DNA of 64,000 bases from Candidatus Firestoneibacteriota bacterium (GCA_903891415.1 CAITEH010000085.1:24560-88559); one strand, 5' to 3'; shown: positions 4,476 through 50,252, numbered from the stretch's first letter. Program-made: numbers and translations. Notes: generated by a model not told the origin, from the letters alone.

Positions 4476-4587
4476 GGTTCTAGGTGCTAGGTTCTAGGTG
4501 TTGGGTGCTAGGTTTTAGGTACTAGGTTTTAGGTTCCAGCTTTTATCTGTGCCATCTGTCTTAAATCTGTGTCATCAGTTATCGGAG
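4476..4587 (+). repeat. Nine tandem GGTNYTR heptamers followed by ATCTGT-type ~9-mer repeats
   Basis: GGTTCTA GGTGCTA GGTTCTA GGTGTTG GGTGCTA GGTTTTA GGTACTA GGTTTTA GGTTCCA (4476-4538), then ATCTGTGCC ATCTGTCTT AA ATCTGTGTC ATCAGTT ATCGG. Confidence 0.9.
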
Positions 4588-4592
4588 ATAAC

Positions 4593-5663
4593 ATGAAAAT
4601 AGCCATATTCGGAATGCCCCAGTCGGGAAAGAAAACCCTGTTCACGCTTATTGCGGGAAAGAAACTCACTGAGAATGAACTTTCCGCCAACGCGGCGGTT
4701 GAGGGTATTGCGGAGATAATTGACCCGCGGTTTGAAAAACTTGTCGCTCTGTACAATCCGGAAAGCGTTGCCCGGGCAAGAATAAATGTGACCCTCCTGC
4801 CCAAGATAGAAAAGGGCTTTTCTTCAAACTCCGAATTCATTAATGAACTTGATAAATATGACGCTTTTGTCGCGGTTATCCGGGCTTTTACGAATGAAGC
4901 GGTCTATCATGTTTCAGGTACTGTCGATCCGGAAAGGGACCTGGAAGAGATAGTGATGGAACTTGCATTCAACGATCTTTCCTTTGTTGATAAACGCCTG
5001 CAGAAAGTGAGCAATGAAAGAGGGGCAAAGACCCCGCAGACCGAGAAGGAAAAGGAAATACTGCCGAAGTTAAAAGCACACCTGGAGAAGGAACTCCCGC
5101 TCCGCACACTGGTGCTGGCTCCCGAAGAATTAAAACTTATCTCCAGCTATCCTCTGGTCACTTTCAAGGAGCTTATTGTGGCTTTGAATATTTCTGAGGA
5201 GGACCTTAATAACGCGGAGCTGCTCAAGAGATTCGAGGAAAAATATAAGGATAAAAAAATAAGTTTTATGGCGGTTTCGGCTAAACTTGAAGGGGAGATA
5301 GCAGCTATAGAAAATAGGGAAGAACGCGAGGAATTTTTAAGATCCATGAATATCGCGGAACCGGTAGTGGATGTTTTGAAACGCACCTTCTTAAAGGCCA
5401 TGGACCTTATGTCTTTCTTCGGGGTCGGGTCCGACGAGGTCAAACAGTGGCTGGTAAAAAAAGATTCTCCGGCGCCAAAAGCCGCCGGGGCCATACACTC
5501 CGACCTGGAAAAGGGCTTTATCCGGGCCGAGGTAATGAAATATAAGGAATTGATAGAGGCCGGCAGCGAAGCAAAATTGAAAGAGTCCGGAAAATATTAC
5601 CTTAAAGGAAAAGATTACATTGTTGAAGACGGAGATATTTTAAGCATCCGTTTTAATGTCTGA
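4593..5663 (+). CDS. ychF: YchF/Obg-like ATPase (DUF933 C-terminus)
   Basis: P-loop GMPQSGKKT, DPRFEKL, C-terminal APKAAGAIHSDLEKGFIRAEV..GKDYIVEDGDI; ATG 4593 follows GGAG. Confidence 0.9.
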   Translation: MKIAIFGMPQSGKKTLFTLIAGKKLTENELSANAAVEGIAEIIDPRFEKLVALYNPESVARARINVTLLPKIEKGFSSNSEFINELDKYDAFVAVIRAFTNEAVYHVSGTVDPERDLEEIVMELAFNDLSFVDKRLQKVSNERGAKTPQTEKEKEILPKLKAHLEKELPLRTLVLAPEELKLISSYPLVTFKELIVALNISEEDLNNAELLKRFEEKYKDKKISFMAVSAKLEGEIAAIENREEREEFLRSMNIAEPVVDVLKRTFLKAMDLMSFFGVGSDEVKQWLVKKDSPAPKAAGAIHSDLEKGFIRAEVMKYKELIEAGSEAKLKESGKYYLKGKDYIVEDGDILSIRFNV

Positions 5664-6804
5664 ACTTATGCCTGAACCTACCGCGGGCCTTTACGTCCAT
5701 ATACCTTTCTGCCTTTCAAAATGCAGGTACTGCGATTTTAATTCGAGCCCGCTGGCAGGCCGGAGCGGCCTGGCCGGTGCTTACCTGGACGCCCTCCTGG
5801 AAGAAATAGCCGCAAGGTGCCGGGGCCGGAAGATCAGCACTGTCTTCGCGGGCGGCGGGACGCCCACCGTTCTGGCGGAGAAAGAGCTTGAAAAACTTAT
5901 CCGGGGAATATTTAAAAATGCCTGCATAGACAAAAATGCGGAATTTTCCTGTGAAGCAAATCCCGGAACTTTGACGGCCGCCAAGGCAAAACTTCTGTTT
6001 GAACTGGGGGTCAACCGCCTTTCTTTGGGCCTGCAGTCAACGGAGGCCAAGATATTGAAGGTACTGGGAAGGGTGCATTCCTGGCCTGATTTTCTGAAAA
6101 GCTATGATTTTGCCGGGAAAGCGGGTTTTACGAACATTAATGTTGATCTTATCTTCGGGGTTCCCGGGCAGACCCTTTTTGGCCTGAAAAGGGATATTTG
6201 TAAAGTAAAAGAACTCAAACCCGCGCATATTTCCATATATAATCTCATCCTTGAAGAAGGAACGCAAATGCACGCGGATGTGAAGAACGGCCTTTATGCC
6301 CTTCCCGGCGAGGATCTGGATGCCGATATGTATTATATGATAAAGGAAATGCTTGAAACAGCCGGCTACGTGCATTATGAGATCTCAAACTTCGCCAGGC
6401 CGGGAAAAGAATGCAGGCATAATATAATATACTGGAAGGCACAGGATTATATCGGGACGGGCGCGGGGGCCTCCGGAAAGCTCGGAAAAGAAAGGAGCGA
6501 TAATATAGAGGACCCTGAACAATATATAGTCTTGATTAAAAAAAACAAAAATGCTATAATACGAAGTCAAAAATTAAGCCGGAAGGAAGAGCTCAGCGAA
6601 ACTATCTTCCTCGGTTTAAGGATGCTGGAAGGACTAAGCCTTACCACATTCAAGGAAAGAACTGGTAAGGATTTTTTTGTTTTATTTGAAAAAGAATTCA
6701 AAAAACTTTCCGGTCTGGAACTGCTTAAAGAAGAGAACGGCTTTATAAAATTGACCGGAAAAGGGCTATTTCTTTCGAACGAAGTGTTTGTTGAGTTTGT
6801 TTGA
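5656..6804 (+). CDS. hemW: Radical SAM heme chaperone HemW (HemN-like)
   Basis: LYVHIPFCxxKCxYCDF, GGGTPT, HYEISNFA..CRHNxxYW. Confidence 0.92.
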   Translation: MSELMPEPTAGLYVHIPFCLSKCRYCDFNSSPLAGRSGLAGAYLDALLEEIAARCRGRKISTVFAGGGTPTVLAEKELEKLIRGIFKNACIDKNAEFSCEANPGTLTAAKAKLLFELGVNRLSLGLQSTEAKILKVLGRVHSWPDFLKSYDFAGKAGFTNINVDLIFGVPGQTLFGLKRDICKVKELKPAHISIYNLILEEGTQMHADVKNGLYALPGEDLDADMYYMIKEMLETAGYVHYEISNFARPGKECRHNIIYWKAQDYIGTGAGASGKLGKERSDNIEDPEQYIVLIKKNKNAIIRSQKLSRKEELSETIFLGLRMLEGLSLTTFKERTGKDFFVLFEKEFKKLSGLELLKEENGFIKLTGKGLFLSNEVFVEFV

Positions 6805-6824
6805 AATTACAGGAGGAAAGTAAA

Positions 6825-7253
6825 GTGAAGAGTTATCAGATCAAACCCGCCGAAGTCGTGCGGAAATGGTATATCATTGACGGGGCCGATAAAATACTGG
6901 GCAGGATAGCTTCAAGAGCCGCCATGGCCGTTATGGGCAAGAACAAACCTATCTATACCCCCAATGTGGACTGCGGTGATTTTGTTATAGTTATCAACGC
7001 CGACAAAATAAAATTAACAGGCAAGAAACTGGAACAAAAACTTGATTTCACGCATTCAGGATATCCGACCGGTGATAAATACACGCCTTACGGCATCCTT
7101 ATGAAAAAGAATCCCGAAAGAGCCGTAATGCTTGCCGTAAAAGGCATGCTGCCCAAGAATAAACTCAGGGACAGAATGATCAAAAGAATTAAATCATACC
7201 AGGGTGACAAGCACCCGCATACAGCGGAAAAGCCCGTAACCATTAAAGTTTAA
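6825..7253 (+). CDS. rplM: 50S ribosomal protein L13
   Basis: WYIIDG..LGRIAS..GKNKPIYTPNVDCGDFVIVINA; GTG start after AGGAGG. Confidence 0.97.
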   Translation: MKSYQIKPAEVVRKWYIIDGADKILGRIASRAAMAVMGKNKPIYTPNVDCGDFVIVINADKIKLTGKKLEQKLDFTHSGYPTGDKYTPYGILMKKNPERAVMLAVKGMLPKNKLRDRMIKRIKSYQGDKHPHTAEKPVTIKV

Positions 7254-7266
7254 GGAGGAGATTAAA

Positions 7267-7671
7267 TTGCAGGAAACTACCAAGAAAAAGAAAGGTTTAG
7301 TGGTTGGCAGGCGTAAAACTGCCATTGCCAATGTAAGAATTATTGACGGCGACGGCAAAATTACGGTGAATAACAGAAAATTCGAAGAATTTTTTCCCAG
7401 GCCGGTGCATCAGATCTTTGTAAAAAAGGCCATAGAGCTTTTGGGCCTTAATTCCAAGATAGATGTTTACGCGAAAGTCAGGGGCGGAGGTATTACGGGC
7501 CAGGCGGAAGCGATGAAGCTGGGTATAGCAAGAGCCCTGATCCAGTATAATCCTGATTACAGGTCTTTGTTATCCCAGAACGGTTTACTGCTCCGGGATC
7601 CGAGAATGGTTGAAAGAAAGAAATGCGGCAGGGCAGGGGCAAGGAAGAGATTCCAGTTCAGCAAGCGTTAA
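7267..7671 (+). CDS. rpsI: 30S ribosomal protein S9
   Basis: GRRKTAIA, GGGITGQAEA, RDPRMVERKK..ARKRFQFSKR. Confidence 0.97.
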   Translation: MQETTKKKKGLVVGRRKTAIANVRIIDGDGKITVNNRKFEEFFPRPVHQIFVKKAIELLGLNSKIDVYAKVRGGGITGQAEAMKLGIARALIQYNPDYRSLLSQNGLLLRDPRMVERKKCGRAGARKRFQFSKR

Positions 7672-7693
7672 TTTTACTATAATAAATAACCCT

Positions 7694-7736
7694 AAACCCG
7701 CTCTGTCGGAAACGGCAGAGCGGGTTTCTCTTTTTC
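7694..7736 (+). terminator. Rho-independent terminator after rpsI
   Basis: AAACCCGCTCTGTCG-GAAA-CGGCAGAGCGGGTTT followed by a T-rich tract. Confidence 0.85.
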
Positions 7737-7755
7737 TAAAGTAAAGGAAAAGCTG

Positions 7756-7900
7756 GGTGCTAGGTCCTGGGTGTTGGAAGAGGAAAAGAGCAAGATAAAA
7801 AGTGACAGGTGCTGGGAAAAAAGAAAAAGGAAATTCCTAATTCCTAATACCTAGCACCTAGTACCCAGAACCCAGAACCTTTTACCTCGTACCCATAACG
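7756..7900. repeat. Inverted heptamer-array element (rpsI-miaB)
   Basis: Left GGTGCTA GGTCCTG GGTGTTG; purine-rich spacer; right about 10 units TAATACC TAGCACC TAGTACC CAGAACC CAGAACC.. (7831-7900). Confidence 0.88.
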
Positions 7901-7908
7901 TTTTCTTA

Positions 7909-9243
7909 TTGAAGGACCGACTTTTGAACAAAACCTTTTTCATTCATACTTTTGGGTGTCAGATGAATCAATATGATTCTGAACTTGTTACCGGAATACT
8001 GGAAAAGGAAGGCCTCAGCAGGGTTGATGCTTATGAAAAAGCGGACCTCTGCCTCGTTAACTCCTGTTCGGTGCGGGAACTGGCCGCGCAAAAGGCCAGA
8101 AGCGAGCTGGGGTTATTCGCTTTATATAAAAGGCGGAGCAGAAAAAAAGTTTACTACGGAATAATCGGCTGTTTGGCCGAACAGGAGGGGAAAAACCTGT
8201 TCAAGAAATTTCCTGATATGGATCTTATAGCCGGGCCCGCGCATGAAAGGCAGCTCGGACAGTATGTAAGTTCCATACTCGCGGGCAACGGGCCTGTTAT
8301 TAAGACCGGAGAAGGCGTTCAGGATTGGGATGTTGACGCGCTGATAAAAAGGGAAAACAGCAGAAGTGCCTGGGTTACGGTAAGCAAAGGGTGCAATTCT
8401 TTCTGTTCTTACTGTGTAGTCCCGTATGCCAGGGGCAGGGAAGAGAGCCGCCCGTTTTCGGCCATTGTCAGGGAAATTAAGGCGCTTACAGGCAGGGGCT
8501 ATAAGGAAATAAATCTTCTGGGCCAGAATGTAAATACTTACGGCCGGGACCTTAAAGGCGCCGCCGCGGGCAAAGATTTTTCTGCCCTCCTTAAAGAAGT
8601 AAATTCACTCCCCGGGGATTTTTGGGTACGTTTCTGGACTTCGCATCCAAAAGACATCCCCGACACACTGATAGATGCCGTGGCCTCGGGAAAAAAGATC
8701 TGCCCGCTGTTCCACCTGCCGGTCCAGTCAGGCTCTGATGCCATACTTAAAGCCATGAACAGAAAATATACGGCCGGGCAGTATCTTGAAATAACGGAAA
8801 AGATCAGAAAAAAAATTCCCGGAGCCGCCATTTCAACGGATTTTATTGTGGGCTTTCCCGGGGAAACAGAAAAAGATCTTGAGTTATCGCTTGAACTGTA
8901 CAGGAAGGCCCGGTTTGATACCGCGTTTACCTATAAGTATTCCCCCAGAAAAGGGACCCGGGCTTTTGACCTGAAAGATGAGGTCAGTAAGGACGTGAAG
9001 GAAGAAAGATTAAGGGCGCTTATGACCCTGCAAAAAGAGCTGGGCCTGGAGATCAACAGGCAGTTCATCGGCACGGTAAGGGACGTCATGCTTTCGGCTC
9101 CCGGGCCGGGGCCGGCCGGCGGGCGTGACAGGACGAACAGGCCTTTCCTGGTGGAAGGAGTCAAGAAATACAAGGAAGGCGAAATTGTCAGCGTCAAGGT
9201 TACGGGTGCGGCGCCGTTCAGCCTTAAAGGAATAAGTCTATAA
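7909..9243 (+). CDS. miaB: tRNA-2-methylthio-N6-dimethylallyladenosine synthase MiaB
   Basis: HTFGCQMNQYDSE, NSCSVRE, GCNSFCSYCVVPYARGREESR, C-terminal TRAM-like domain. Confidence 0.95.
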   Translation: MKDRLLNKTFFIHTFGCQMNQYDSELVTGILEKEGLSRVDAYEKADLCLVNSCSVRELAAQKARSELGLFALYKRRSRKKVYYGIIGCLAEQEGKNLFKKFPDMDLIAGPAHERQLGQYVSSILAGNGPVIKTGEGVQDWDVDALIKRENSRSAWVTVSKGCNSFCSYCVVPYARGREESRPFSAIVREIKALTGRGYKEINLLGQNVNTYGRDLKGAAAGKDFSALLKEVNSLPGDFWVRFWTSHPKDIPDTLIDAVASGKKICPLFHLPVQSGSDAILKAMNRKYTAGQYLEITEKIRKKIPGAAISTDFIVGFPGETEKDLELSLELYRKARFDTAFTYKYSPRKGTRAFDLKDEVSKDVKEERLRALMTLQKELGLEINRQFIGTVRDVMLSAPGPGPAGGRDRTNRPFLVEGVKKYKEGEIVSVKVTGAAPFSLKGISL

Positions 9244-9273
9244 TGGTCTATAAAAGTCTGTAAGAGTCTGTAA
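9234..9273 (+). repeat. Four tandem 10-mers overlapping the miaB stop
   Basis: AAGTCTATAA TGGTCTATAA AAGTCTGTAA GAGTCTGTAA. Confidence 0.8.
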
Positions 9274-9287
9274 AGGAGAAAATTATT

Positions 9288-9968
9288 GTGGAAATTATCA
9301 AGACCGACGAAAAGCTGCTAACCTCTCCCATGACCGTTAAGGAACTCCTTATTTATTATTCCTGCGTTAAAGGTAAGATAAGGGGCCGGCTTAAAGAGTT
9401 TGAAGAGGCAGGCAAAGAGAACGACCGGAGATTATTTGAAGAACTTTGTTTTTGTATCTTTACCGCGAATGCTTCCGCGAAGATGGGCGCTGTCTGCGTA
9501 GAAAGGATACGCCCGGTGCTTTTGACCGCTTCTGCGGCGGAACTTCAGGAAAAAATAAAGGGGCATTACCGCTTCTGGCGGATAAGGCCTGAATATATCG
9601 TGCATACAAGAGAGTATCTGAGGAAGGAATACGGGCTGAAAATGCGGAAATTACTGGACTCTTTTAAAGACCGTGATTCGCTAAGGGATTTCTTCGCGAA
9701 AAATAAGGGAATTAAGGGGATAGGTTATAAAGAGGCCAGTCATTTTCTGCGGAATATCGGCATAAAAGGTTATGGCATAATGGATAAACATATCTTAAAA
9801 TGCCTCTGTGAATTTGGTATAATATGCGAAGTTAAGCCGGTCAATACCAAAGAAAAATACCTGGCAATGGAAGAAAAGCTTAAAGAGTTTTCAAAAAAAA
9901 TAAAAGTTGATCTGGACGAACTTGACCTGCTGCTTTGGTCCAGCAAGACGGGGGAAATACTTAAGTAA
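9288..9968 (+). CDS. ogg: 8-oxoguanine DNA glycosylase/AP lyase (Ogg2, archaeal/Thermotoga type)
   Basis: FEELCFCIFTAN, HhH GIGYKEASHFLRNIG, MDKHIL, terminal TGEILK. Confidence 0.9.
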   Translation: MEIIKTDEKLLTSPMTVKELLIYYSCVKGKIRGRLKEFEEAGKENDRRLFEELCFCIFTANASAKMGAVCVERIRPVLLTASAAELQEKIKGHYRFWRIRPEYIVHTREYLRKEYGLKMRKLLDSFKDRDSLRDFFAKNKGIKGIGYKEASHFLRNIGIKGYGIMDKHILKCLCEFGIICEVKPVNTKEKYLAMEEKLKEFSKKIKVDLDELDLLLWSSKTGEILK

Positions 9969-9969
9969 C

Positions 9970-10000
9970 GATTACTAATAACTAATTGCTGATTGCTGAT
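9970..10000 (+). repeat. Four tandem AT-rich heptamers
   Basis: GATTACT AATAACT AATTGCT GATTGCT GAT just before the kdsB RBS. Confidence 0.7.
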
Positions 10001-10009
10001 AAAGGAAAA

Positions 10010-10759
10010 ATGAAAAAGAGGATAGTGGGGATGATACCGGCCAGGCTCGGGTCGACGCGGTTTCCGGAGAAAGTTCTTGCTCCCATTCTCGGAAAGCCCA
10101 TGCTCTGGTGGGTCTGGAAAGAGGCAAAGAAAGTAAAATGTTTGTCCGAGGTTTATATTGCTACCGATAGTAAAAAGATATTTGAGGTTGTTGAAAAATT
10201 CGGGGGCAAGCCGGTTATGACCTCCAAAAAGCATAAAAGCGGTACGGACAGGATAGCTGAAGCGGTTAAGGGTATTAAAGCAGATATAGTGGTGAACATT
10301 CAGGGTGATGAACCTTTAATAAAAGCCGCCATGATAGCCCGGGCCGCCGGGCCGCTCCTAAAAGACGCCGGCCTCCGCATGAGCACGCTTGTTTACAGGT
10401 CCGCGGACAAAAAGCTTCTTAAGGACGGCAATATAGTCAAAGTCGCGGTGGATAAGAACGGGTACGCGCTGTATTTTTCCAGAGCTGTTATACCCTCCCT
10501 GGAAAGAGCCGTGAGTTTTGAGTATTTTTTTAAGCACATCGGGGTCTACGTTTATAGAAAAGATTTTCTCCTAAAATATGTTAAAATGAAGCAGACCAGA
10601 ATGGAAAAGATAGAAAAACTTGAGCAGCTGCGGGTGCTGGAAAACGGCTTTAAGATCAAGACCGTGGAGACGCCGTTTGACACGCTGCCCGTGGATACGA
10701 AGCAGGAATTGGCCAGGGTCATAAAAATAATAAAAAAGGGCGGGCTAAAGCGGCCTTAA
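10010..10759 (+). CDS. kdsB: CMP-Kdo synthetase
   Basis: IPARLGSTRFPEK, SGTDRIAE, VNIQGDEP, EKLEQLRVLENG. Confidence 0.95.
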   Translation: MKKRIVGMIPARLGSTRFPEKVLAPILGKPMLWWVWKEAKKVKCLSEVYIATDSKKIFEVVEKFGGKPVMTSKKHKSGTDRIAEAVKGIKADIVVNIQGDEPLIKAAMIARAAGPLLKDAGLRMSTLVYRSADKKLLKDGNIVKVAVDKNGYALYFSRAVIPSLERAVSFEYFFKHIGVYVYRKDFLLKYVKMKQTRMEKIEKLEQLRVLENGFKIKTVETPFDTLPVDTKQELARVIKIIKKGGLKRP

Positions 10760-10780
10760 AATATTTTTAAGGAGAGTCTG

Positions 10781-12412
10781 ATGGCAAAGTTTATATTTGT
10801 GACGGGGGGTGTTGTTTCCTCACTGGGTAAAGGCATTACAAGCGCGTCCATAGGATGCCTGCTTGAATCAAGGGGCTTGAAGGTCACTCTCCAGAAATTT
10901 GATCCCTATATAAATGTTGATCCCGGCACCATGAACCCTTACCAGCACGGTGAGGTTTTTGTGACCGATGACGGCGCGGAAACCGACCTGGATCTGGGCC
11001 ATTACGAAAGATTTACCAGCGCGGTCCTTACCCGGGACAACAACATAACGACCGGCCAGATATATAATTCGGTGATCTCGAAGGAAAGAAAAGGCGAATA
11101 CCTGGGGAAGACCATCCAGGTGATACCGCATATCACAAATGAGATCAAAGAAAGGATCCACAAAGTTGCCCGGGACAAGGAAGTTGACGTGGCCATAATT
11201 GAAATAGGCGGAACTGTCGGAGATATCGAATCCCTGCCGTTCCTTGAAGCGATCAGGCAGTTCAAAAAAGATGTAGGAAAAGAAAATGTTATCTACGTAC
11301 ATGTGACCCTGGTGCCGCACATCAGCACGGCCGGTGAATTAAAGACCAAACCCACCCAGCATTCGGTGGCCCAGCTCAGGGGCATCGGTATTCAGCCGGA
11401 CATTCTTATTTGCCGTTCCCAGCGGCCTCTCACAAAAGATGTAAGGAACAAACTGGCGCTGTTTTGTAATGTGGAGGAAGAAGGAGTTATCCAGAATCTG
11501 GACGCGCAATCGGTATACGAACTTCCGCTCATGCTCAAGGAAGACGGGCTGGATATAATAATAATGAAATTATTAAATCTGCGGTACGGAAAACAAAATA
11601 TCTCCAGCTGGGAAAAGGCCGTGCAGAAAATAGTAAATCCTTCCAAAACGGTCAATATAGGTATAGTCGGAAAATACGTGGAATTGCTGGATGCCTATAA
11701 GAGTATTATTGAGGCCTTCGTGCACGCAGGCAGTGCCAATGATGCCAGAGTTAAACTGTGCTGGATAGAAGCGGATTCGGTCATCAAATGCGGCGCTAAA
11801 GCATCTCTTTGCGAGGTGGACGGGATCCTGGTTCCCGGAGGTTTTGGGGGCAGGGGCATTGAAGGCAAAATAGAGGCCATCAGATATGCCCGGGAGAATA
11901 AAATGCCGTTTTTCGGTATCTGCCTCGGCATGCAGTGCGCGGTCATTGAGTTCGCCCGGAATGTGGCGGGGCTTAAGGACGCGAACAGCACGGAATTCGA
12001 TGAAAAAACCACCCATAAAGTAATAACCCTGCTGGACAGCCAGCGGAATGTTACCGATAAAGGCGGTACCATGCGCCTCGGGGCCTGGGACTGCAAGCTT
12101 GCAAGGGATACCAAGTCCTTTGAGGCCTACGGAAAAGAACTGATCTCTGAGCGCCACAGGCACAGATATGAATTCAATAATGAATACCGGCAGGCCTTTA
12201 AAACAAAAGGTTTGAAACTGGCCGGGACCACAATGGACGGGGGACTGGTGGAAATAGTTGAGCTTCCATCCCACCCCTGGTTTGTAGGAGTCCAGTTCCA
12301 TCCGGAATTCAAGTCCAGGCCTTTAAGCCCGCACCCGCTATTTGCAAACTTTGTAAAAGCAGCGCTTGCAGGGAAGGAAAAACAGCCTCCTGTTAAAAAG
12401 AAGGTAAAATGA
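10781..12412 (+). CDS. pyrG: CTP synthase
   Basis: [41 protein letters not shown]. Confidence 0.98.
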
Positions 12413-13227
12413 AAAATAATACAGCATACGACTACAAAAAAAATAGAGGCAGTTTCACTCTGATCTCAGGGCCCTGCGTGATCGAATCCGAAGGGCTTTG
12501 CCTTGAAATTGCCCGGGAGATAAAAAAGATAGCCGGGGAACTGGAGATACCGTTCGTCTTTAAAGCGTCCTACGACAAAGCGAACAGGACTGCGGTAGAA
12601 AATTACCGGGGGCCGGGGCTTAAGGCCGGCTTGAAAATACTTGAGAAAGTCAAAGAAAAAACGGGAGTACCTGTTTTAACGGATGTGCATAGCTGCGAAG
12701 AAGTTGAAGCAGCTTCAAAAGTGGTGGATATCATTCAAATACCCGCCTACCTTTGCCAGCAAACCTCGCTTACCATTAAGGTGGCTGAGACGGGGAAAAC
12801 TGTTAATATCAAAAAAGCCCAGTTTCTTTCCCCCTGGGATATAAAAAAAGTGATCAATAAGGTGAAGTCAACGGGCAACGAGAAAATAATAATCACTGAA
12901 AGGGGTTCGGTTTTCGGATACAGCACGCTGATCACGGATATGAGGGCTTTTACGATAATGAAAGCTTATGGTTATCCCGTGATCTTTGATGTGACGCATG
13001 CCGTGCGTATCCCGGGTTTTACCAGCGCTGACGCGAGAGGCGGGACCCCCGAGATGATATTGCCGATGGCCCTGGCGGGTGTAGGCGCGGGGAGCGACGG
13101 CTTGTTCATAGAAACTCATCCGAATTGTAAAGAAGCGCTCTGTGATGCTTCTTCCATGCTGCAGCTTGACCGCTTAAAAGAACTCCTTATTAAAGCAAAA
13201 AAAGTTTATGAGATAGTAAGGAATTAA
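12409..13227 (+). CDS. kdsA: Kdo-8-phosphate synthase
   Basis: [35 protein letters not shown]; operon context. Confidence 0.93.
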
Positions 13228-13233
13228 AAGAAA

Positions 13234-13427
13234 GGTGCTAGGTCCTGGGTTTTAGGTACAAGGAAAAAAAGAAAAAGATAAGAAAAGGAAAAAATAAAGG
13301 TTTTGGGTTCTGGGGAGAAAAAGGATAAAGGAAAGTACCGGGTAACGGAAAAAATCAAAAGGATTTTTACCTAGCACCTAAAACCTAACACCTAACACCC
13401 AGCACCTTGCAGTTAACACCTATAACC
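13234..13427. repeat. Inverted heptamer-array element (kdsA-kdsD)
   Basis: Left GGTGCTA GGTCCTG GGTTTTA GGTACAA; A/G-rich spacer; right TAGCACC TAAAACC TAACACC TAACACC CAGCACC .. TAACACC TATAACC. Confidence 0.88.
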
Positions 13428-13450
13428 TGTAGTTCTCTTGGAGAAGAAAA

Positions 13451-14419
13451 ATGCCATCAGATAAATATATAATAAAAAAAGCCGGGGAAGTTTTAAAAAT
13501 AGAAGCCGAAGCTGTTAACGGCCTGAAAAAAAGTATGAATGCTGATTTTCTCCGGGCTGTCAGGTTGATCCTCAATTGCGCAGGACGGGTTATTGTAACA
13601 GGTATAGGCAAATCCGGAATAATGGCAAGAAAGATAGCTGCCACCCTGGCCTCTACCGGTACGCCTGCGATCTTTCTTCATTCAACGGAAGGCCTGCACG
13701 GGGATCTGGGGGCGGTTACAAAACGCGATGTGGTTATTGCTTTGTCCCAGAGCGGAGAATCCAGGGAAGTATTGGAGATCCTGCCGGCAATAAAAAAAAT
13801 AGGCGCAAAACTGATCGTATTTACGGGGGATAAAAACTCGTCCCTGGCGGAAAAAAGCGATCTCTGTCTTGATGTTTCGGTAAAAAAAGAGGCCTGTCCT
13901 TTAAATCTGGCACCGACAGCGTCCTGCATGGCGCAACTGGCCATGGGTGACGCCCTGGCTATAGCGCTTCTTATTAAAAGAGGTTTCAAGGAAGAGGATT
14001 ACGCGCTTTTACATCCCGGCGGCTCCCTGGGCAGAAAACTTAAGACGGTGGAAGATGTTATGAGGCGCGGCGCGGATATTCCCCGGGTCGGGGAAAAAAT
14101 GAATATGGAAAAAGTTATTTTTGAAATGACCTCAAAGAAAATGGGCTGCACCTGTGTGGTTAACGGCGCGGGAAAGCTTACGGGAATAATAACCGATCAG
14201 AATTTAAGGAATCACCTGCAAAGAGACCGCAATATTATGAAAAAGCGGGCCGCTGAGATCATGACCAGGCATCCCAAAACCATCGCCAAAGAAGCCCTGG
14301 TTGACGAAGCTATAACAATGACCGGGGAAAGATCCATAAGCACGCTGCTTATCGTGGATAAAGCACAAAAACCGCTGGGCATAGTTCACCTGCATGATCT
14401 TCTGAAATTGGACAGATAA
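13451..14419 (+). CDS. kdsD: Arabinose-5-phosphate isomerase (KpsF/GutQ, SIS plus CBS)
   Basis: GIGKSG..KIAATLASTGTPA, HGDLG, EACPLNLAPT, HPGGSLG, two CBS domains. Confidence 0.95.
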   Translation: MPSDKYIIKKAGEVLKIEAEAVNGLKKSMNADFLRAVRLILNCAGRVIVTGIGKSGIMARKIAATLASTGTPAIFLHSTEGLHGDLGAVTKRDVVIALSQSGESREVLEILPAIKKIGAKLIVFTGDKNSSLAEKSDLCLDVSVKKEACPLNLAPTASCMAQLAMGDALAIALLIKRGFKEEDYALLHPGGSLGRKLKTVEDVMRRGADIPRVGEKMNMEKVIFEMTSKKMGCTCVVNGAGKLTGIITDQNLRNHLQRDRNIMKKRAAEIMTRHPKTIAKEALVDEAITMTGERSISTLLIVDKAQKPLGIVHLHDLLKLDR

Positions 14420-14421
14420 AA

Positions 14422-14967
14422 ATGAAAAGTTACCGGATCATAATTGTTTTAGGCCTGCTTGCCGTACTCGGCTGCAGCAGGCAGGGCCGGCAGGCCTCGC
14501 TCGCGGAGAAGACCCGCGAAGTGGTCACCATGCGCGGATTTCACATGGTGCAGACCGACCTGGGTGTCAAAAAATATATTATTGACGCGGATGAAGCCAA
14601 TATCAATCCCCGGGTAAAACTGATAAGTTTCAAAGTTGTAAAGACAAAATACTACGATAAAGAAAAAGAGATCGCGAACCTGAGATCCGACACGGGAGTT
14701 ATTCACACGGACACGAATGACATAGAAGTGAAAGGCAATGTGCTGCTTAAGACCACGGACGGTTCCCGGCTGGAAACAGAAAGCCTGACCTGGAGCAACG
14801 CAAAGAACAAACTTAGAACTGAGGCCTTTGTGAAAGTTTTCAGAGGGGATAATGTAATGTCCGGCTACGGCATGGAATCAGATCTTCTGCTGGAAAATGT
14901 AACTATCAAAAAAGTCAGCACCAGAATATCGGATCTGGAGACTTTCAAAGAAAAAGGAAAAAAATGA
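14422..14967 (+). CDS. lptC: LPS export protein LptC
   Basis: N-terminal lipobox-like anchor; beta-jellyroll motif RLETESLTW; position before lptA-lptB. Confidence 0.85.
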
Positions 14968-15617
14968 AGCAGCTTCCGGGCCTCGTACTTGCGCTGCTGC
15001 TGGCAGGAAATATTACGGCGGCTGAGATGAAAGTTGATAAGGATACACCTCTGGAAATTACGGCAAAGAAAGTGGTGGGCAACAGCAAGACGCGGGAAGT
15101 CACCTATTCCGGAGAAGTGGTACTCAAACATGACGGAAATATATTGAGATCGGAAAAACTGGTCCTGCTGCCGGGCAATAACAAAATAATCGCGGAAACT
15201 AACGTAAAATTTTTCAGCGGGAATAAGCAGGTGGAAATAACCGGAGGTTATACCGAATACCTGAAAGACACGGGGCAGCTCACCATGAAAATAGCCCCCG
15301 TCCTTTTCTTGAAGGATAAAGAAGGAGTAGAGACCAATATTAAAGGCGATGTAGTGGATGTCTATAATGCAGGCGCTCGCGCGGTCGTAAGCGGGAAAGT
15401 TGAAATAAGGCGTGAGGATCTGACCATTTATTGCGGGAACGCCGATTATGACAGGCCGTCAGACAGGATAAAACTTGAAGGCCACCCGAAAGTACTGCAG
15501 GGGAAGAACACCTATGAAGGGGAACTCATTAATATAACCATTAAAGACAGAAAATTGACCGCGGACAGGAATGTAAAAGCCCGGATCTACACGGAAGAGA
15601 AAAAAAATGTTAATTAA
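14964..15617 (+). CDS. lptA: LPS transport periplasmic protein LptA/OstA-like
   Basis: Signal peptide, PLEITA, repeated OstA-like strands, [10 protein letters not shown]; synteny. Confidence 0.75.
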
Positions 15618-16326
15618 AACCGAAGGACTTGCAAAAAAATATAAGAACCACTTTGTGGTGGACGGCGTTAATATTGAAGTAAAAAAAGGGGAGATAGTAG
15701 GCCTGCTGGGCCCCAACGGCGCCGGGAAAAGCACCACTTTCTATATGATCGTAGGCCTGATCAAACCGGATGCCGGCAGGGTCTTTATAGGCAGTAATGA
15801 CGTGACAAAATGCCCGACTTATGAGCGCGCGAAATTCGGGGTCGGCTATCTTCCCCAGGAACCGTCCATTTTCAGGAAGCTTTCGGTGGCAGATAATATA
15901 ATGGCCATTCTGGAGTCGCTGGATATACCGCAGGAAGAAAAAGAGAAAACTTTAAATACGCTGCTTGCCGAGTTTAATATTGAAAGGTTAAGAAAAAACA
16001 TGGCCTATACTCTTTCCGGCGGGGAAAGGAGAAGAGTGGAAATAGCGCGGGCGCTGGTCACTAATCCTTCCTTTCTGCTGCTGGATGAACCGTTTGTCGG
16101 GATAGATCCTATTACGGTCACCGATATTCAGCAGGTTATCTCCCAATTAAGAAAAAAGGGCCTCGGCATACTGATAACCGATCATAATGTCAGAGAGACC
16201 CTTTCGATAACCGACAGGGCCTATATAATGTATGAAGGGAAGATCCTGCTTTCGGGGGACGCAAAAAAACTTTCCACGGATAAGAAGGCCAGGGAATTCT
16301 ACCTGGGCGAGAAATTTACTCTTTAA
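15607..16326 (+). CDS. lptB: LPS export ABC ATPase LptB
   Basis: [49 protein letters not shown]. Confidence 0.96.
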
Positions 16327-16373
16327 GATGACAAAAATCATAAAAGAAATATGAGAAAAGCTTATAATATAAA

Positions 16374-16889
16374 ATGAAAAATATGAAGATCCTTAAATAC
16401 GGCAGCCCGGTGCTGCGCAAGAAGGCCGCGAAAATAACCAGGATAGACCAGCGGATAAAAGAGCTGGCTGAAGCCATGATGAAAAGCATGCATGCCTCCA
16501 AAGGTATAGGTTTGGCCGCCAATCAGATAGGAATACTTGAGAGGCTGGTCACGGTCGATACCGGCAGGGGCGAAAAAAAAGGCGATGTGCTTTGCCTGGT
16601 CAATCCGGAAATAACGGAGCATGAAGGCAGCGCGCGTTTCGAAGAAGGGTGTCTTTCTTTCCCCGAGATCTTCGCCGACGTTGACCGTCCCGCGAAGGTC
16701 CGCGTAAAATACCAGGACCTTGAGGGCGCTGTTTGCGAGGTGGCCGCCGAGGGCGTGCTGGCCAGGGTGCTGCAGCACGAGATAGATCATTTGAACGGGG
16801 TTCTTTTTGTGGATAAAATAAGCAAAATTAAATATTTATTATTGAGTAAAAGGCTGAAAGAGCTGGAAAGAGCCACCAGGGCAAAATGA
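16374..16889 (+). CDS. def: Peptide deformylase
   Basis: GIGLAANQIG, EGCLS, QHEIDHLNG. Confidence 0.96.
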   Translation: MKNMKILKYGSPVLRKKAAKITRIDQRIKELAEAMMKSMHASKGIGLAANQIGILERLVTVDTGRGEKKGDVLCLVNPEITEHEGSARFEEGCLSFPEIFADVDRPAKVRVKYQDLEGAVCEVAAEGVLARVLQHEIDHLNGVLFVDKISKIKYLLLSKRLKELERATRAK

Positions 16890-17830
16890 AGATACTTTTT
16901 TACGGTACGGCGGAAACCTCTGCCAGAGTTCTGAAAAAGCTCTTTGACACGGGCAAACACGAGCTCGAAGTTATCACGGCCTGCGATAAACCGCGCGGCC
17001 GGGGACAGAAGGTCAATTGCTGTGAAGTGAAAGGCCTGGCGGAACTGCTTGGGTTAAAGTATTATCAGCCGGAGAATATTAAAGAGCCCGGCTTTTACGA
17101 AAAACTTTCCGGCAAGGCCTATGATCTTGGCGTAGTGGCGGCGTACGGGCAGATAATAAGCGAAAAACTTTTAAAACTGCCGGCGGCGGGGACCATAAAT
17201 CTCCATTTTTCCCTGCTCCCCGGGTACCGCGGGGCCGCCCCTTATAACTGGGCTTTGATAAACGGGGAAAAAAGTACCGGCGTAACTGTCATGTTCGTGG
17301 AAAAAAAGCTGGATTCCGGGGACATTGTTCTCCAAAAAGAAGTACCTATTGCCCCGGAGGATAATTCCGGTACCTTGCTTGAGAAACTTACGGAAGCGGG
17401 CAGCGGGCTGCTTTTAGAAGCTGTGGAACTGATCGGGCAAAAAAAAGCTGTGAGGATAAAACAGAACGAAACACAAGCGACTTACTTCGGTAAACTGCCG
17501 GATTCCATCTTTGAAATAGACTGGCAGAAAAGCGCTTTGGAAATAAATTATCTTGTTCGAGGCCTGGCGCCGGAGCCCGGAGCTTTTTCAACCTTAAACG
17601 GGAAGCTGGTTAAGATACTAAAAACTTCTATACTCTCGCATGGGGATTTTTCGGGGAAACCCGGGGAAATAAAAGAAATAGTGAAGGGGCGCGGCTTGCC
17701 GGTAGGCACGGGTAAAGGCGGCCTGCTCATAGAAAGGATAAAGCCGGAAGGTAAAAAGGAAATGTCTGTTATTGATTATATTAGAGGGAACCCTATATTG
17801 CCGGGAACAGTATTTGAAAGATCTAAGTGA
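16886..17830 (+). CDS. fmt: Methionyl-tRNA formyltransferase
   Basis: DKPRGRG, AAYGQII, NLHFSLLPGYRGAAP, LDSGD. Confidence 0.95.
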   Translation: MKILFYGTAETSARVLKKLFDTGKHELEVITACDKPRGRGQKVNCCEVKGLAELLGLKYYQPENIKEPGFYEKLSGKAYDLGVVAAYGQIISEKLLKLPAAGTINLHFSLLPGYRGAAPYNWALINGEKSTGVTVMFVEKKLDSGDIVLQKEVPIAPEDNSGTLLEKLTEAGSGLLLEAVELIGQKKAVRIKQNETQATYFGKLPDSIFEIDWQKSALEINYLVRGLAPEPGAFSTLNGKLVKILKTSILSHGDFSGKPGEIKEIVKGRGLPVGTGKGGLLIERIKPEGKKEMSVIDYIRGNPILPGTVFERSK

Positions 17831-18065
17831 TAGGTACTAAGTGATAGGTGCTGGGTGCTAGGTCCTGGGGACTGGGAAAAAAAAGTTCCAAAACCTAACA
17901 CCTAGTCCTCCAAAACTGAGTTTTGGAGAGATCTCGCCTTTAGGCGGAAACCGAGAACCTGTTTTTAAAGGAGAACGTTGGGGAAATAGGTAAGTGATAG
18001 GTACTAGGTCCTGGGGGCTGGGGACTGGGAAAAGAAAAATGTTCCAAAACCTAGCACCTAGAACC
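17826..18065. repeat. Two tandem inverted heptamer-array elements (fmt-htpX)
   Basis: Copy 1 at 17826-17959 and copy 2 at 17993-18065 share AGTGATAGGTACTA..GGTCCTGGGG..ACTGGGAAAA..GTTCCAAAACCTARCACCTAG; each is followed by AAGGAGAAC. Confidence 0.88.
17906..17948. mobile_element. 43-bp palindromic insertion element
   Basis: TCCTCCAAAACTGAGTTTTGGAGAGATCTCGCCTTTAGGCGGA splits a TAG|AACC heptamer that is intact in the adjacent copy (18059-18065). Confidence 0.65.
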
Positions 18066-18087
18066 CTTCTTAAAAAGGAGAACTTAA

Positions 18088-18951
18088 ATGAACGCATTGA
18101 AAACAACTGTTTTGCTTGCAGCTTTGATGGGTATTTTTATATTTTTCGGGGGGATTTTCGGGGGAAAAAGCGGAGTAATAATAGCTTTCATTATCGGAAT
18201 GCTGATGAATCTTGTTATGTACTGGTTTTCCGACAGGATGATCTTATCCATGTATGGCGCCAAACCGCTTGCGGACGGAGAAGCACCCGAACTGGCCGGT
18301 ATGGTGCGGAACCTTGCTGCAAGGATGGACCTGCCGATGCCCAAGGTCTATATCATAAACATGGAAGCTCCAAATGCTTTTGCCACGGGAAGAGATCCGG
18401 AACATGCCGCGGTTGCCGTGAGCCCTTCCATAATGCAGCTGCTTTCCAAACATGAATTGGAAGCTGTGCTGGCACATGAACTTTCCCACATTAAACACAG
18501 AGATACTTTGATAGCGACGCTGGCGGCCGGAATTGCTTCCGCTATCTCCATGCTGGCAAATCTGGCTTATTTTTCGTCTTTCTTTGGAATGGGAAGCAGT
18601 AGTGATGAGGACAGGGGCAATCCGCTGGTAATGCTTCTTTTGGCGATACTGACGCCGATAGTCGCCATGTTTATCCAGCTGGCTATAAGCAGAGCGAGAG
18701 AGTTTGAAGCGGACAGCGGTTCGGCCATCGTTACGAACAGGCCGCAGAGCCTGGTCTCAGCGCTTGAAAAGATCCATGGTTATGCGAAAGAAGCGCCGCT
18801 CACGGGCGGTTCCCCCTCAACAGCCAGCCTGTTTATCGCTAATCCCTATAAAGAAAGTTTTATGGTAAATTTATTAAGCACGCATCCGACTTTAAGCAGA
18901 AGAATAAAAAATCTCCAGAAAACCGCGGAGACGCTGGGAATACCGTTTTAA
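18088..18951 (+). CDS. htpX: Zinc metalloprotease HtpX (M48)
   Basis: PNAFATGR, AHELSHIKHRD, SRAREFEAD, STHP. Confidence 0.94.
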   Translation: MNALKTTVLLAALMGIFIFFGGIFGGKSGVIIAFIIGMLMNLVMYWFSDRMILSMYGAKPLADGEAPELAGMVRNLAARMDLPMPKVYIINMEAPNAFATGRDPEHAAVAVSPSIMQLLSKHELEAVLAHELSHIKHRDTLIATLAAGIASAISMLANLAYFSSFFGMGSSSDEDRGNPLVMLLLAILTPIVAMFIQLAISRAREFEADSGSAIVTNRPQSLVSALEKIHGYAKEAPLTGGSPSTASLFIANPYKESFMVNLLSTHPTLSRRIKNLQKTAETLGIPF

Positions 18952-18973
18952 AAATAATACTAAGCGTAAGGAT

Positions 18974-19141
18974 GTTTGTAAGGTTTTTAAAGTCTATAAG
19001 GTTCGTAAGGTCTAAAATCGTTGAAGCTATATTGCCTGAAATACTTTGGTCGGGGAAAAGCCGGTAAATACAAAGTACGAAATTGATATTATATTGTTTA
19101 AAGACTTTATAAACTTTAGGAACTTTACGAACCTTATGAAC
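18974..19141. repeat. Inverted 9-mer-array element (htpX-iscU)
   Basis: Left GTTTGTAAG GTTTTTAAA GTCTATAAG GTTCGTAAG GTCTAAAAT; right TTTAAAGAC TTTATAAAC TTTAGGAAC TTTACGAAC CTTATGAAC (reverse complement of the same consensus). Confidence 0.88.
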
Positions 19142-19157
19142 TATTTTAGGAGGCAAT

Positions 19158-45584: not shown

Positions 45585-45597
45585 GGAAAAGGGAATG

Positions 45598-45632
45598 GGT
45601 CCTCGGTGCTGGGTTTTGGGGGCTGGGTGTTA
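45598..45632 (+). repeat. Orphan left heptamer arm
   Basis: GGTCCTC GGTGCTG GGTTTTG GGGGCTG GGTGTTA just after the amrB stop. Confidence 0.8.
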
Positions 45633-46862: not shown

Positions 46863-46872
46863 AATAATAAGC

Positions 46873-46911: not shown

Positions 46912-46985
46912 ATTGTTTTCTCAGCTTCTAAACGGACACAATACCCTTTAAACCCGTGAAAAAATATGATAAAATATAAAAAGAC

Positions 46986-47061
46986 GCTGATGTAGCTCAG
47001 TTGGTAGAGCAGCAAATTCGTAATTTGCAGGTCGTCGGTTCGATCCCGACCATCAGCTCCA
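46986..47061 (+). tRNA. tRNA-Thr(CGT)
   Basis: Acceptor GCTGATG/CATCAGC, anticodon arm GCAAA-TTCGTAA-TTTGC, GGTTCGATCCC, encoded CCA. Confidence 0.96.
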
Positions 47062-47260
47062 GTTAAAGCTATTCCACTGACCCTGTAGCATGCTCTATGT
47101 TCAGGTGCAGGGCCATCATGGTTGCAAAAATATCTGATTCCACTGATATTAAGACAGAGTAAAAGAATACAGAATGGCAGGATAACAAGTTGAGCAAAGG
47201 TATTTAAAAATCCTTTTACCTTTTGCGAAATCCGCCTGGGCGGAAAATTCCACTGATAAA

Positions 47261-48724: not shown

Positions 48725-48732
48725 GGGGAAAG

Positions 48733-50190
48733 ATGGGTAAGTACGAAATAGTCATAGGCCTGGAAGTACACGTACAGTTAAAAACTGAAAGCAAACTTTT
48801 CTGCGGTTGTTCCACAAAATTCGGTTCGGAGCCCAACACCCAGACCTGCCCGGTATGTGAGGGCCTGCCCGGGGTCCTGCCGGTACTGAATAAAAAAGCC
48901 GTGGAATTTGCGGTTAGAACAGCCCTGGCCTTGAATTGCAGGGTTAACGAATATGCCAAATTTGACCGGAAAAATTATTTTTACCCGGACCTGCCGAAAA
49001 ATTATCAAACCTCACAGAAGGATATGCCTTTCGCGGAACACGGTTTTCTGGAAGTTATGGTGGACGGAAAGAATGTTAAGATAGGTATCACCCGGGCGCA
49101 TCTTGAAGAGGATGCAGGTAAGCTCCTGCATGCGGGTAGTTCCGGGCAAATAGGAGAAGCGGAGGAGAGCCTGGTGGATCTTAACCGCACCGGTATCCCC
49201 CTGCTGGAAATCGTATCTGAACCTGATATACGGTCCTCTGAAGAGGCCTACGAATATCTAAATTCATTAAAGAGCATATTGCAGTATATCGGGGTTTCTG
49301 ACTGCGATATGGAAAAAGGCTCGTTAAGATGCGACGCTAATATTTCCCTCCGGCCTTGCGGACAAAAAGAATTAAATCCTAAGGTGGAGATAAAGAACCT
49401 TAACTCCTTTAAGAATGTCAAGGACGCGCTGGATTATGAAACTGCGCGCCAGACGGAATGCCTTGACACGGGGGAAAAGACCTATCAGGAGACCAGGCTG
49501 TTTACGGCGGAGAAAGGTGTCACAACTCAGATGCGCTCCAAGGAAGAGGCAAATGATTACAGATATTTCCCCGAACCGGACCTGGTGGTCAACCGTATCA
49601 CGCCCGCGTATATTGAAGAAGCAAAAAAAGGGCTGGTGGAACTTCCGATAGCCCGGAAAAAAAGATTTGTAACACAATACGGCCTGCCGGAATATGATGC
49701 CGGGGTACTTACCGCGGCCAAGGCAACCGCGGACTATTTTGAACGCTGTGCGGCGCTCCATGCTAATTTCAAAGCGCTCAGCAACCTGGTCATGGGTGAA
49801 CTTCTGGGTTTTTTAAAAGCGGCGGGGAAAGATATCTCGGAAGCGCCGGTTACTCCGGAAAATCTTGTGAAACTTGTAAAATTGATAGACAATAATACCA
49901 TCTCCGGTAAGATAGCCAAGGTGGTTTTTGAGGATATGTTTAAGGAGGGCGCGGATCCGGAAGCGGTTGTGAAGAAAAAAGGCCTGGTACAGATAACCGA
50001 TGCAGGTAAACTTGGCGCGCTCGTGGAACTGGTTATTTCCAAAAATCCAAAAAGTGTGGAACAGTACAGGTCCGGCAAGCAGGAAGTAATGGGCTTTCTT
50101 GTAGGGCAGGTAATGAAAGAGTCCCAGGGGAAAGCAAATCCGGGACTGGTAAATAAGATATTAAAAGAGAAACTGGGTCCTAGGTCCTAG
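48733..50190 (+). CDS. gatB: Asp/Glu-tRNA amidotransferase subunit B
   Basis: IGLEVHVQL, RKNYFYPDLPKNYQ, DLNRTGIPLLEIV, DYRYFPEPDL. Confidence 0.97.
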   Translation: MGKYEIVIGLEVHVQLKTESKLFCGCSTKFGSEPNTQTCPVCEGLPGVLPVLNKKAVEFAVRTALALNCRVNEYAKFDRKNYFYPDLPKNYQTSQKDMPFAEHGFLEVMVDGKNVKIGITRAHLEEDAGKLLHAGSSGQIGEAEESLVDLNRTGIPLLEIVSEPDIRSSEEAYEYLNSLKSILQYIGVSDCDMEKGSLRCDANISLRPCGQKELNPKVEIKNLNSFKNVKDALDYETARQTECLDTGEKTYQETRLFTAEKGVTTQMRSKEEANDYRYFPEPDLVVNRITPAYIEEAKKGLVELPIARKKRFVTQYGLPEYDAGVLTAAKATADYFERCAALHANFKALSNLVMGELLGFLKAAGKDISEAPVTPENLVKLVKLIDNNTISGKIAKVVFEDMFKEGADPEAVVKKKGLVQITDAGKLGALVELVISKNPKSVEQYRSGKQEVMGFLVGQVMKESQGKANPGLVNKILKEKLGPRS

Positions 50191-50252
50191 GTGCTAAAAG
50201 ATAAAAATATTTTTTCCCAGCACCTAACACCCAGCACCTGTTACTTAGAACC
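50176..50252. repeat. Inverted heptamer-array element overlapping the gatB stop
   Basis: Left GGTCCTA GGTCCTA GGTGCTA; right CAGCACC TAACACC CAGCACC TGTTACT TAGAACC. Confidence 0.88.

Follow-up and report, generated by a model that had tools for sequence, protein, structure and literature searches.

Seven loci within a 64,000-nucleotide window of the genome of a Candidatus Firestoneibacteriota bacterium (GCA_903891415.1), at which a preliminary description had noticed arrays of a degenerate heptamer, are probably gene-less copies of a cassette in which a four-helix-bundle gene is flanked by heptamer-array arms. The cassette resembles the intervening sequences (IVS) of ribosomal RNA (rRNA), is probably selfish, and lies in transcribed spacers between co-directional genes; five of the seven loci are hairpins and two are solo 5' arms. 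The window, the whole stretch of DNA analysed, spans positions 24560-88559 of contig C85 (CAITEH010000085.1) in a 2.5-Mb assembly of 86 contigs with an estimated completeness of 86.7% (hereafter G000). An array was defined, for a regular-expression scan, as at least two in-register units of the word GGTNCTR (G arm) or of its complement YAGNACC (C arm). Comparison was made with G001, of the same genus (98% complete), with G002 and G004, of a sister genus in the same family, and with G003 and G005. The genes flanking the seven loci were named via NCBIfam, and five of the junctions are referred to as J1 (lepA/ychF), J2 (rpsI/miaB), J3 (kdsA/kdsD), J4 (fmt/htpX), and J6 (gatB/rlmD). Gene calls were those of a rough open reading frame (ORF) caller (2,091 ORFs covering 90.7% of G000 bases), and several of the arm readings were made by eye.

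The connection between the arrays and the gene was found at the window's own J2 junction. A search of metagenome contigs with the four-helix-bundle protein of G002 provided 60 loci, the three closest of which (L187, L188, and L189, with 100%, 85%, and 77% identity, respectively) were all GGTNCTR-armed; among 49 further tabulated loci (35-59% identity), such arms were present only in L205 and L228. Both L188, from a lineage resembling the sister genus, and L189 are situated between rpsI and miaB; they are short metagenome contigs that cross repeats, yet they are independent and concordant. Alignment of L189 (1,004 bp) to the window by blastn matched its positions 1-245 to 7570-7816 (93.5%), 240-372 to 7752-7879 (95.5%), and 802-1004 to 7801-8011 (90.6%). 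Its order is terminator, an extra module of G arm and spacer, the hairpin of the window, a ribosome-binding site, a four-helix-bundle gene of 117 codons at 423-776 (PF05635/TIGR02436), a second copy of the hairpin, and the leader of miaB. Window positions 7801-7879 align with both hairpin copies of L189, and the window allele therefore corresponds to L189 without one upstream module and without the approximately 430 bp that separate the directly repeated C arms. Whereas no ORF occurs in the copies of the window, one is present in L189, L188, L187, and G002. The state of J2 in the window is likely to reflect loss of the gene, because the filled state is shared by two lineages, diverged from each other, whose genes are orthologs with saturated synonymous divergence (dS). 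The suggestion in the preliminary description that these elements represent the empty state of a small cassette system was supported. Among L187, L188, and L189, the ratio of nonsynonymous to synonymous divergence (dN/dS) is 0.04-0.09 at a dS of 1.3-2.4, and all three retain their GGTNCTR arms; the word has thus been kept where neutral DNA would be scrambled. Judged from these coding sequences, the cassette gene is under strong purifying selection and functional. A second junction is filled in G002, where a gene (C1:46240-46560, locus L153) has GGTNCTR-type arms on both sides; at this junction G004 and G005 possess gene-less heptamer hairpins of approximately 100 bp, G003 a plain spacer, and G001 a plain terminator.

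Within the window, the scan returned 13 arrays, all of them inside the seven loci, and Tandem Repeats Finder detected a period of 7, or its multiples 14 and 21, at the same places; these results and a reading of each locus agree with the in-register arrays first reported. Both arms, in the order G then C, are present at five loci and a G arm alone at the other two (Table 1), so that the claim of a long hairpin at each element did not hold. The two solo arms (at 4476 and 45605) fold no better than shuffled sequences (z of 0.05 and 0.26), compared to z values of -2.2 to -4.5 for the five two-arm loci. Their placement is as had been described: the G arm begins 0-13 nt past the upstream stop codon, or past the rpsI terminator (7694-7727) that precedes the J2 hairpin, and the C arm ends approximately 22-50 nt ahead of the next start codon. 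The J1 arm begins 6 nt past the lepA stop (4467-4469). At J4, the TGA stop of fmt (17828-17830) is overlapped by degenerate units, while at J6 the TAG stop of gatB (50188-50190) is itself supplied by a heptamer unit of the G arm, the G001 ortholog ending three codons earlier on its own TAA; the arrays thus abut or rewrite gene ends.

Table 1. Heptamer-array loci of the window and the elements of other families adjoining them (window coordinates; z, fold relative to shuffled sequences).
Feature	Location	Coordinates	Strand	Details
Solo G arm	J1, lepA/ychF	4476-4545 (strict 4476-4531)	+	8 strict units, 10 with degenerate units; no C arm
Arm of another dispersed word, ATCTGTGYCATC	immediately 5' of ychF (ATG 4593)	4546-4585	+	
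Hairpin	J2, rpsI/miaB	7756-7879	+	G arm 7756-7776, purine-rich spacer, inner G unit 7808-7816, C arm 7845-7879; RNA fold -47 kcal/mol, z -3.7
Hairpin	J3, kdsA/kdsD	13234-13427	+	outer G arm 13234-13254, 44-nt purine spacer, inner G arm 13299-13315 (strict 13299-13312); RNA fold -52.8 kcal/mol, z -3.0
C arm of the J3 hairpin	J3, kdsA/kdsD	13372-13406	+	degenerate units on to 13427
Hairpin J4a	J4, after fmt	17826-17902	+	G arm 17847-17874, C arm 17889-17902; z -3.0
Nested double-hairpin element of another dispersed family, about 48 nt	J4, inside C-arm units	17903-17950	+	z -2.7
Hairpin J4b	J4, 5' of htpX (ATG 18088)	18000-18065	+	G arm 18000-18027, C arm 18045-18065; z -2.2
Solo G arm	AmmeMemoRadiSam-B/VOC-family gene	45598-45632 (strict 45605-45632)	+	4-5 units; no C arm
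Hairpin	J6, gatB/rlmD	50176-50252	+	G arm 50176-50196, C arm 50218-50238, then degenerate units; z -4.5

The seven loci are part of a family dispersed throughout G000. The strict scan identified 77 arrays (39 G and 38 C) in 48 loci, compared to 12 arrays in a mononucleotide shuffle, and a register-based finder returned 73 arrays in 43 loci compared to five; a C arm followed by a G arm was never encountered in the strict scan. With a genome that is 90.7% coding according to the rough ORF caller, 38 of the 43 loci were nonetheless intergenic. Two of the five apparently inside genes are artefacts, involving the choice of an upstream GTG at 45598 and a spurious ORF called over a 52-bp repeat on contig C73, and the remaining three are two-unit matches that may be due to chance. 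Among 283 units, positions 1 (G, 279), 2 (G, 278), 3 (T, 256), and 6 (T, 264) are nearly constant, position 5 is C (219) or T (61), and position 7 is A (144) or G (128), while position 4 is free (T 99, G 89, C 53, A 42). Neighboring units differ at positions 4 and 7, and the arrays are therefore not fresh products of slippage. GGTNCTR was found to be one of several word families in a whole-genome search with Tandem Repeats Finder, the most abundant being a family of 9/10 bases. At C73:18322-18570, five tandem copies of a 52-bp module, in which a G arm is joined to a spacer rich in sense-strand purines and a C arm is missing, indicate that the module of arm and spacer can itself multiply. On contig C21 (7300-10500), an identical 30-nt sequence precedes both of two solo G arms separated by approximately 1.95 kb, and each arm ends a minus-strand gene pair that by eye resembles a nucleotidyltransferase toxin and its antitoxin. 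Cargo between distant arms was considered for these (7358/9308) and for a pair on C84 (19538/21920), and was rejected: by eye, the intervening genes are of ordinary host or toxin-antitoxin-like kinds, and each arm is a solo arm in its own right.

The elements had been described as sharing a single polarity. The order G then C provides no information on this point, because it reads identically on both strands; a real polarity is nevertheless evident from the spacers and from the extra G arms of the sense strand. At the 34 co-directional intergenic loci of G000, the sense-strand patterns were G (14), GC (10), C (5), GGC (3), GGGC (1), and GCGC (1), and never GCC; inverted pairs thus occur at 15 of the 34, extra arms are always G, and solo G arms outnumber solo C arms by 14 to 5. 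Between the upstream stop and the start of a G arm there are 0-23 nt. Of the 15 co-directional hairpins, 14 have a spacer rich in purines on the sense strand, relative to a background of 55% purine in 872 co-directional spacers, and spacer sequences differ between loci, both as previously noted. With respect to transcription, therefore, orientation across the genome is not random. The flanks of the arrays are A-rich on the 5' side (mean of 7.9 A in 12) and somewhat T-rich on the 3' side (mean of 5.3 T in 12), and the purine-rich sense strand of the spacers may reflect selection against runs of U behind a stem within operons. Where position 4 is G, as in the J2 hairpin and in other arms, the units take the form AGGTG, which is Shine-Dalgarno-like, and their partners, CACCT, resemble the 3' end of 16S rRNA; that part of the stem mimics a ribosome-binding helix is offered as an idea only.

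Gene order is conserved among the relatives, which permitted direct comparison of the junctions. The three-unit pattern was found 19 times in G000, six times in G002, once in G004, and not at all in the other 58 genomes searched, including G001; a reversed-pattern control gave one match in total over the 61 genomes. With two units, the counts were 67 in G000, none in G001, 30 in G002, 11 in G004, and three in G005. The lepA/ychF, rpsI/miaB, and gatB/rlmD junctions are occupied in most relatives by hairpins of other words, for example words like AAATTCGAA and GTACAAA in G001, like ACTAAAT in G002, and like GTTACGA in G005, and GGYNCTR-like arms occur at some of the three in G002, G004, and G005. 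The spacers of G003, which was covered except for 8,000 bases, are short and plain, with no hairpin at gatB/rlmD. At the AmmeMemoRadiSam-B/VOC junction, G001 carries arrays of other words, and two G001 contigs end at two of these junctions. The kdsA/kdsD spacer measures 223 bp in G000 compared to approximately 22-23 bp in G001 and G002, and the J3 element was thus gained in the G000 lineage; no target-site duplication was seen by eye relative to the empty site of G001. The junctions therefore vary among relatives, with filled, gene-less, and absent states all observed.

An association of similar arrays with TIGR02436 and GxxExxY genes had been mentioned in the preliminary description, and the link to TIGR02436 genes proved to be real. 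Three TIGR02436 and two TIGR04256 (GxxExxY) loci are present in G000, and all of them, including both GxxExxY genes, are flanked by inverted arrays of other words (read by eye). A search of G001-G005 for the four-helix-bundle family gave 26 matches, treated as 25 places; at 19 of these, an exact inverted match of at least 10 nt exists between the 260-bp flanks, compared to one of 25 in shuffles, and in L189 and L188 the arms are GGTNCTR itself. Of the remaining six places, four (those of the CAATAGAAC/TCGATTCTCG clade) have the word in both orientations on a single side of the ORF. Words follow protein clades in G001-G005, and the genes are co-oriented with both neighbors at 16 of the 17 loci where both were called; as judged by eye, a ribosome-binding motif resembling GGGGTGA (or GGGGAGA) stands ahead of most of them. 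In a quick tree of 62 proteins, from which rows with internal stops (L197, L222, and L238) had been dropped and in which many forks are unresolved, the seven GGTNCTR-armed proteins form two starred clades within one starred clade of 24 and require three changes, whereas shuffled assignments require a mean of 6.8, with none of 500 as low. In a more careful tree of 25 proteins, the GGTNCTR-armed protein of G002 falls in a polytomy; it shares 47% and 40% identity with two gammaproteobacterial proteins of the same word, compared to 37.7% or less with 22 members having other words. A four-unit scan with one genome per species detected at least 122 stretches in many phyla, 80 loci of which were taken further. 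The PF05635 ORFs found beside them are those of Grimontia hollisae (L035; 9e-35) and Pseudoalteromonas shioyasakiensis (L097; 2.5e-31), and a Vicinamibacterales locus (L027) has, by eye, a frameshifted copy of the gene between its G and C arms. Long perfect arrays stand beside the two PF05635 genes (38 units at L035 2501-2766 and 22 units at L097 2501-2654), and the arrays across each gene from these are degenerate or composite; both loci, from cultured Gammaproteobacteria, are possible laboratory models.

Given these observations, the complete cassette is proposed to consist, on the sense strand, of one or more modules of G arm and purine-rich spacer, a C arm, a GGGGTGA-type ribosome-binding site, the gene for a 117-residue protein, and a second hairpin. 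Recombination between the repeated arms would delete the gene to leave a single hairpin, and further loss would leave solo G arms. The gene would be expressed by read-through from the host operon, as its co-orientation and its own ribosome-binding site suggest. The word itself would be kept because a factor reads it, most likely the four-helix-bundle protein of the cassette. In polycistronic mRNA, the hairpin would be expected to be cut by RNase III, by analogy with the IVS in the 23S rRNA of Coxiella burnetii, where the enzyme cleaves in the middle of a 28-bp stem (PMC4990558). A broader proposal, which is put forward tentatively and is itself rather doubtful, is that each clade of these IVS/Avd-like four-helix-bundle proteins reads its own word of 7-10 nt, the whole being a protein-guided mobile system that colonizes transcribed spacers, of which rRNA is a special case, with gene-less arrays maintained or spread in trans. 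If true, such a word-reading system would explain the survival of the word through saturated divergence in the absence of covariation, the loss of arrays in G001, which is without the gene of the word, and the new gene-less copy at kdsA/kdsD.

A number of observations weigh against the proposal that the window's loci are derived from such a cassette. No GGTNCTR-armed four-helix-bundle gene was found in G000, as assembled to 86.7% completeness, leaving approximately 43 loci without a cognate gene. Because the spacers differ from locus to locus, they point to neither a master copy nor a common deletion of recent date; the gain at J3 shows no gene. Beyond the family, only two of the 100 ORFs of 85-200 residues beside arrays in the 80 loci belong to PF05635, and most of the arrays in other phyla (80 loci among at least 122 stretches) stand alone. 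At J2, the direction of change rests on parsimony, and gain of the gene by the reverse recombination is the less likely alternative. Nor do the arms give any sign of selection on the RNA stem. When the two arms of a pair are aligned in the best register, complementarity holds for 43-45 of 47 unit pairs at positions 1, 2, and 6, but falls to 16 of 47, the level expected by chance, at position 4; among 16 arm pairs at co-directional loci, transition mismatches in the sense RNA comprise 14 G.U compared to 22 A.C, and thus no excess of G.U is apparent. Taken together, these two results imply that the stem follows from the presence of arrays of a conserved word, and the stem itself as the selected feature was dropped from consideration.

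The absence of a cognate gene is also an argument for a different explanation, that the gene-less hairpins are themselves mobile, non-autonomous elements (akin to MITEs, the miniature inverted-repeat transposable elements, or to REPINs) copied in trans by a cognate four-helix-bundle protein or by a host enzyme. With this explanation, G000 could hold 67 two-unit matches without the gene while G002, with the gene, holds only 30, the kdsA/kdsD element could be gained in the G000 lineage alone and without a gene, and 43 separate cycles of insertion then deletion, which seem costly, would not be called for. Although plausible, it is considered rather unlikely: the differing spacers and the lack of target duplications or fixed ends argue against it, the assembly is incomplete and a close relative (L189) retains the gene, and every transition observed links a filled to a gene-less state at one and the same site. 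A classical MITE was rejected since units and spacers differ between loci and no target-site duplication was seen by eye at kdsA/kdsD, and a CRISPR array, with its 25-40-nt repeats and unique spacers of similar length, since the period is 7, the units run head to tail, and the arms are inverted; the preliminary description had likewise excluded both a CRISPR array and a MITE of fixed sequence. That the host has adopted these hairpins and G arms for use as RNA elements is less probable again. The elements lie exactly between a stop and the next ribosome-binding site with a polarity that follows transcription, the same junctions are occupied in several genomes, and conservation of the word persists at saturated dS; direct repeats of heptamers that lie immediately upstream of start codons have, moreover, been described (PMC4679880). 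A host function is difficult to reconcile with G001, which has no two-unit matches and at the same junctions has plain spacers or other words, with the short plain spacers of G003, with the lack of pairing covariation or a G.U bias, and with neighboring genes that are functionally unrelated.

If the loci were microsatellites generated by ordinary slippage, or intrinsic terminators, unconnected with any gene, they would also appear as tandem arrays of period 7 with A-rich 5' and somewhat T-rich 3' flanks, or as hairpins that fold better than shuffled sequences. Contigs of four DNA metagenome runs (2016-2020) bridge J1-J4 without gaps (window 2600-19600), and although contigs drop rare variants, no gaps or variants in unit number were seen at J1-J4, nor do any of the letter differences listed from the four runs fall inside these arrays. 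An apparent joint from 4533 to 13385 was traced to the C18 locus, a further member of the family whose sequence cross-mapped here. Among RNA runs, the one match was a peat metatranscriptome with a share of 0.05. The "slippable" hairpins of the preliminary description were not borne out, and of its overall interpretation it is the empty cassette and the TIGR02436 link that stand, slippage and a hairpin at every locus not being supported. Given the lack of length variants in these contigs, the differences between neighboring units at positions 4 and 7, a terminator scan of 4000-19500 that (with loops of 3-8 nt only) returned no heptamer hairpin and one strong terminator nearby, that of rpsI, and the fact that in relatives the arms bracket a gene, microsatellites or terminators are very improbable. 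Equally intergenic and palindromic are the repetitive extragenic palindromes (REPs) and REPINs that are moved by REP-associated tyrosine transposases (RAYTs) of the Y1 type, and three matches to PF01797 do exist in G000. These three Y1 genes, however, are flanked by unrelated palindromes of their own without GGTNCTR arrays, and REPs are of fixed sequence rather than arrays of a degenerate word, making this the least credible of the explanations. A comparison with Rfam gave only two tRNAs in the window at the gathering score and no matches with E of 1 or less in 4300-18300.

Elements of other families adjoin or interrupt the arrays. The ATCTGTGYCATC motif of the arm upstream of ychF has 52 matches in G000, often in pairs that precede a small GC hairpin; the word also flanks the GxxExxY gene at C36:9139-9417, and the arm upstream of ychF is kept in G001. 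The double hairpin nested in J4 (17903-17950) has four copies in G000 by motif scan, three of them in or beside GGTNCTR units, and it also interrupts a G arm at gatB/rlmD in G004; its appearance is that of a very small insertion element with the arrays as its targets. Further arrays of other words in the window, at 9234-9274, 18979-19014, and 19104-19142, belong to the abundant 9/10-base family, and many short DNA matches to 18974-19034 and 19100-19143 were found in G001-G005.

If the seven loci do derive from such a cassette, an IVS-type gene with arms of word arrays inhabits ordinary operons and not rRNA alone, and its turnover between filled, gene-less, and absent states takes place within a genus, leaving dozens of gene-less hairpins behind. 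It would also account for a class of intergenic repeats that is ignored by genome annotation and breaks metagenome assemblies. The pairing of a defined word, GGTNCTR, with a defined protein of 117 residues is testable, and culturable carriers are available in P. shioyasakiensis and Shewanella spp.

Several known systems share features with these elements. Integron cassettes with attC sites are small promoter-less genes with imperfect palindromes and both empty and filled states; in contrast, the present elements are scattered singly in operons rather than arrayed beside an integrase, and their arms are word arrays. Avd, the accessory protein of diversity-generating retroelements, is a four-helix-bundle protein of the same superfamily as the cassette gene product and has a role in binding both nucleic acid and reverse transcriptase; in the sequence adjoining the present elements, neither a gene for such an enzyme nor a template or variable repeat was seen. 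REP sequences and the bacterial interspersed mosaic elements (BIMEs) that contain them, like REPIN/RAYT systems, are short palindromes present in many copies at gene boundaries; here, there is no fixed sequence, the associated gene encodes a four-helix-bundle protein and not a nuclease, and the Y1 genes of G000 are flanked otherwise. Tandem heptamers constitute the short tandemly repeated repetitive (STRR) sequences of cyanobacteria, which are comparable to the TAACTGA repeats. The latter, known from Beggiatoaceae, Cyanobacteria, and Bacteroidetes, are likewise tandem 7-nt words, almost all intergenic near gene ends, with a patchy and horizontal-looking distribution; they comprise 169 direct sets and one inverted set (PMC4679880), unlike the GGTNCTR arrays, of which 15 of 34 co-directional loci are inverted pairs and for which a gene-bearing form exists. 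Four-helix-bundle or intervening-sequence genes are not mentioned in that description, and no account of word-array arms around four-helix-bundle or GxxExxY genes was found in the literature outside subscription journals and the comments of family databases.

Besides the TAACTGA repeats, the closest likeness is to the IVS of rRNA. Those bearing an S23p ORF have a history of about thirty years, the cited papers dating from 1990 on, and, to our knowledge, neither their movement nor the role of their protein is yet understood. Like the ORF-bearing IVS of 23S rRNA in C. burnetii (S23p) and Leptospira, the cassette combines a small PF05635-type ORF with complementary flanks that form a stem, is sporadically and apparently horizontally distributed, and resides within a host transcript (PMC4990558). 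Complementary borders capable of forming a stem are present at five of the seven window loci, the other two being solo arms. Unlike the IVS, all seven loci lie between protein-coding genes rather than in helix 25 or 45 of 23S rRNA; the copies of the window lack the ORF, and that of L189 is located behind a complete hairpin and not in its loop; and instead of pairing in a near-perfect stem of 28 bp, the arms repeat a degenerate 7-nt word and mismatch, at chance level, once in every 7 nt.

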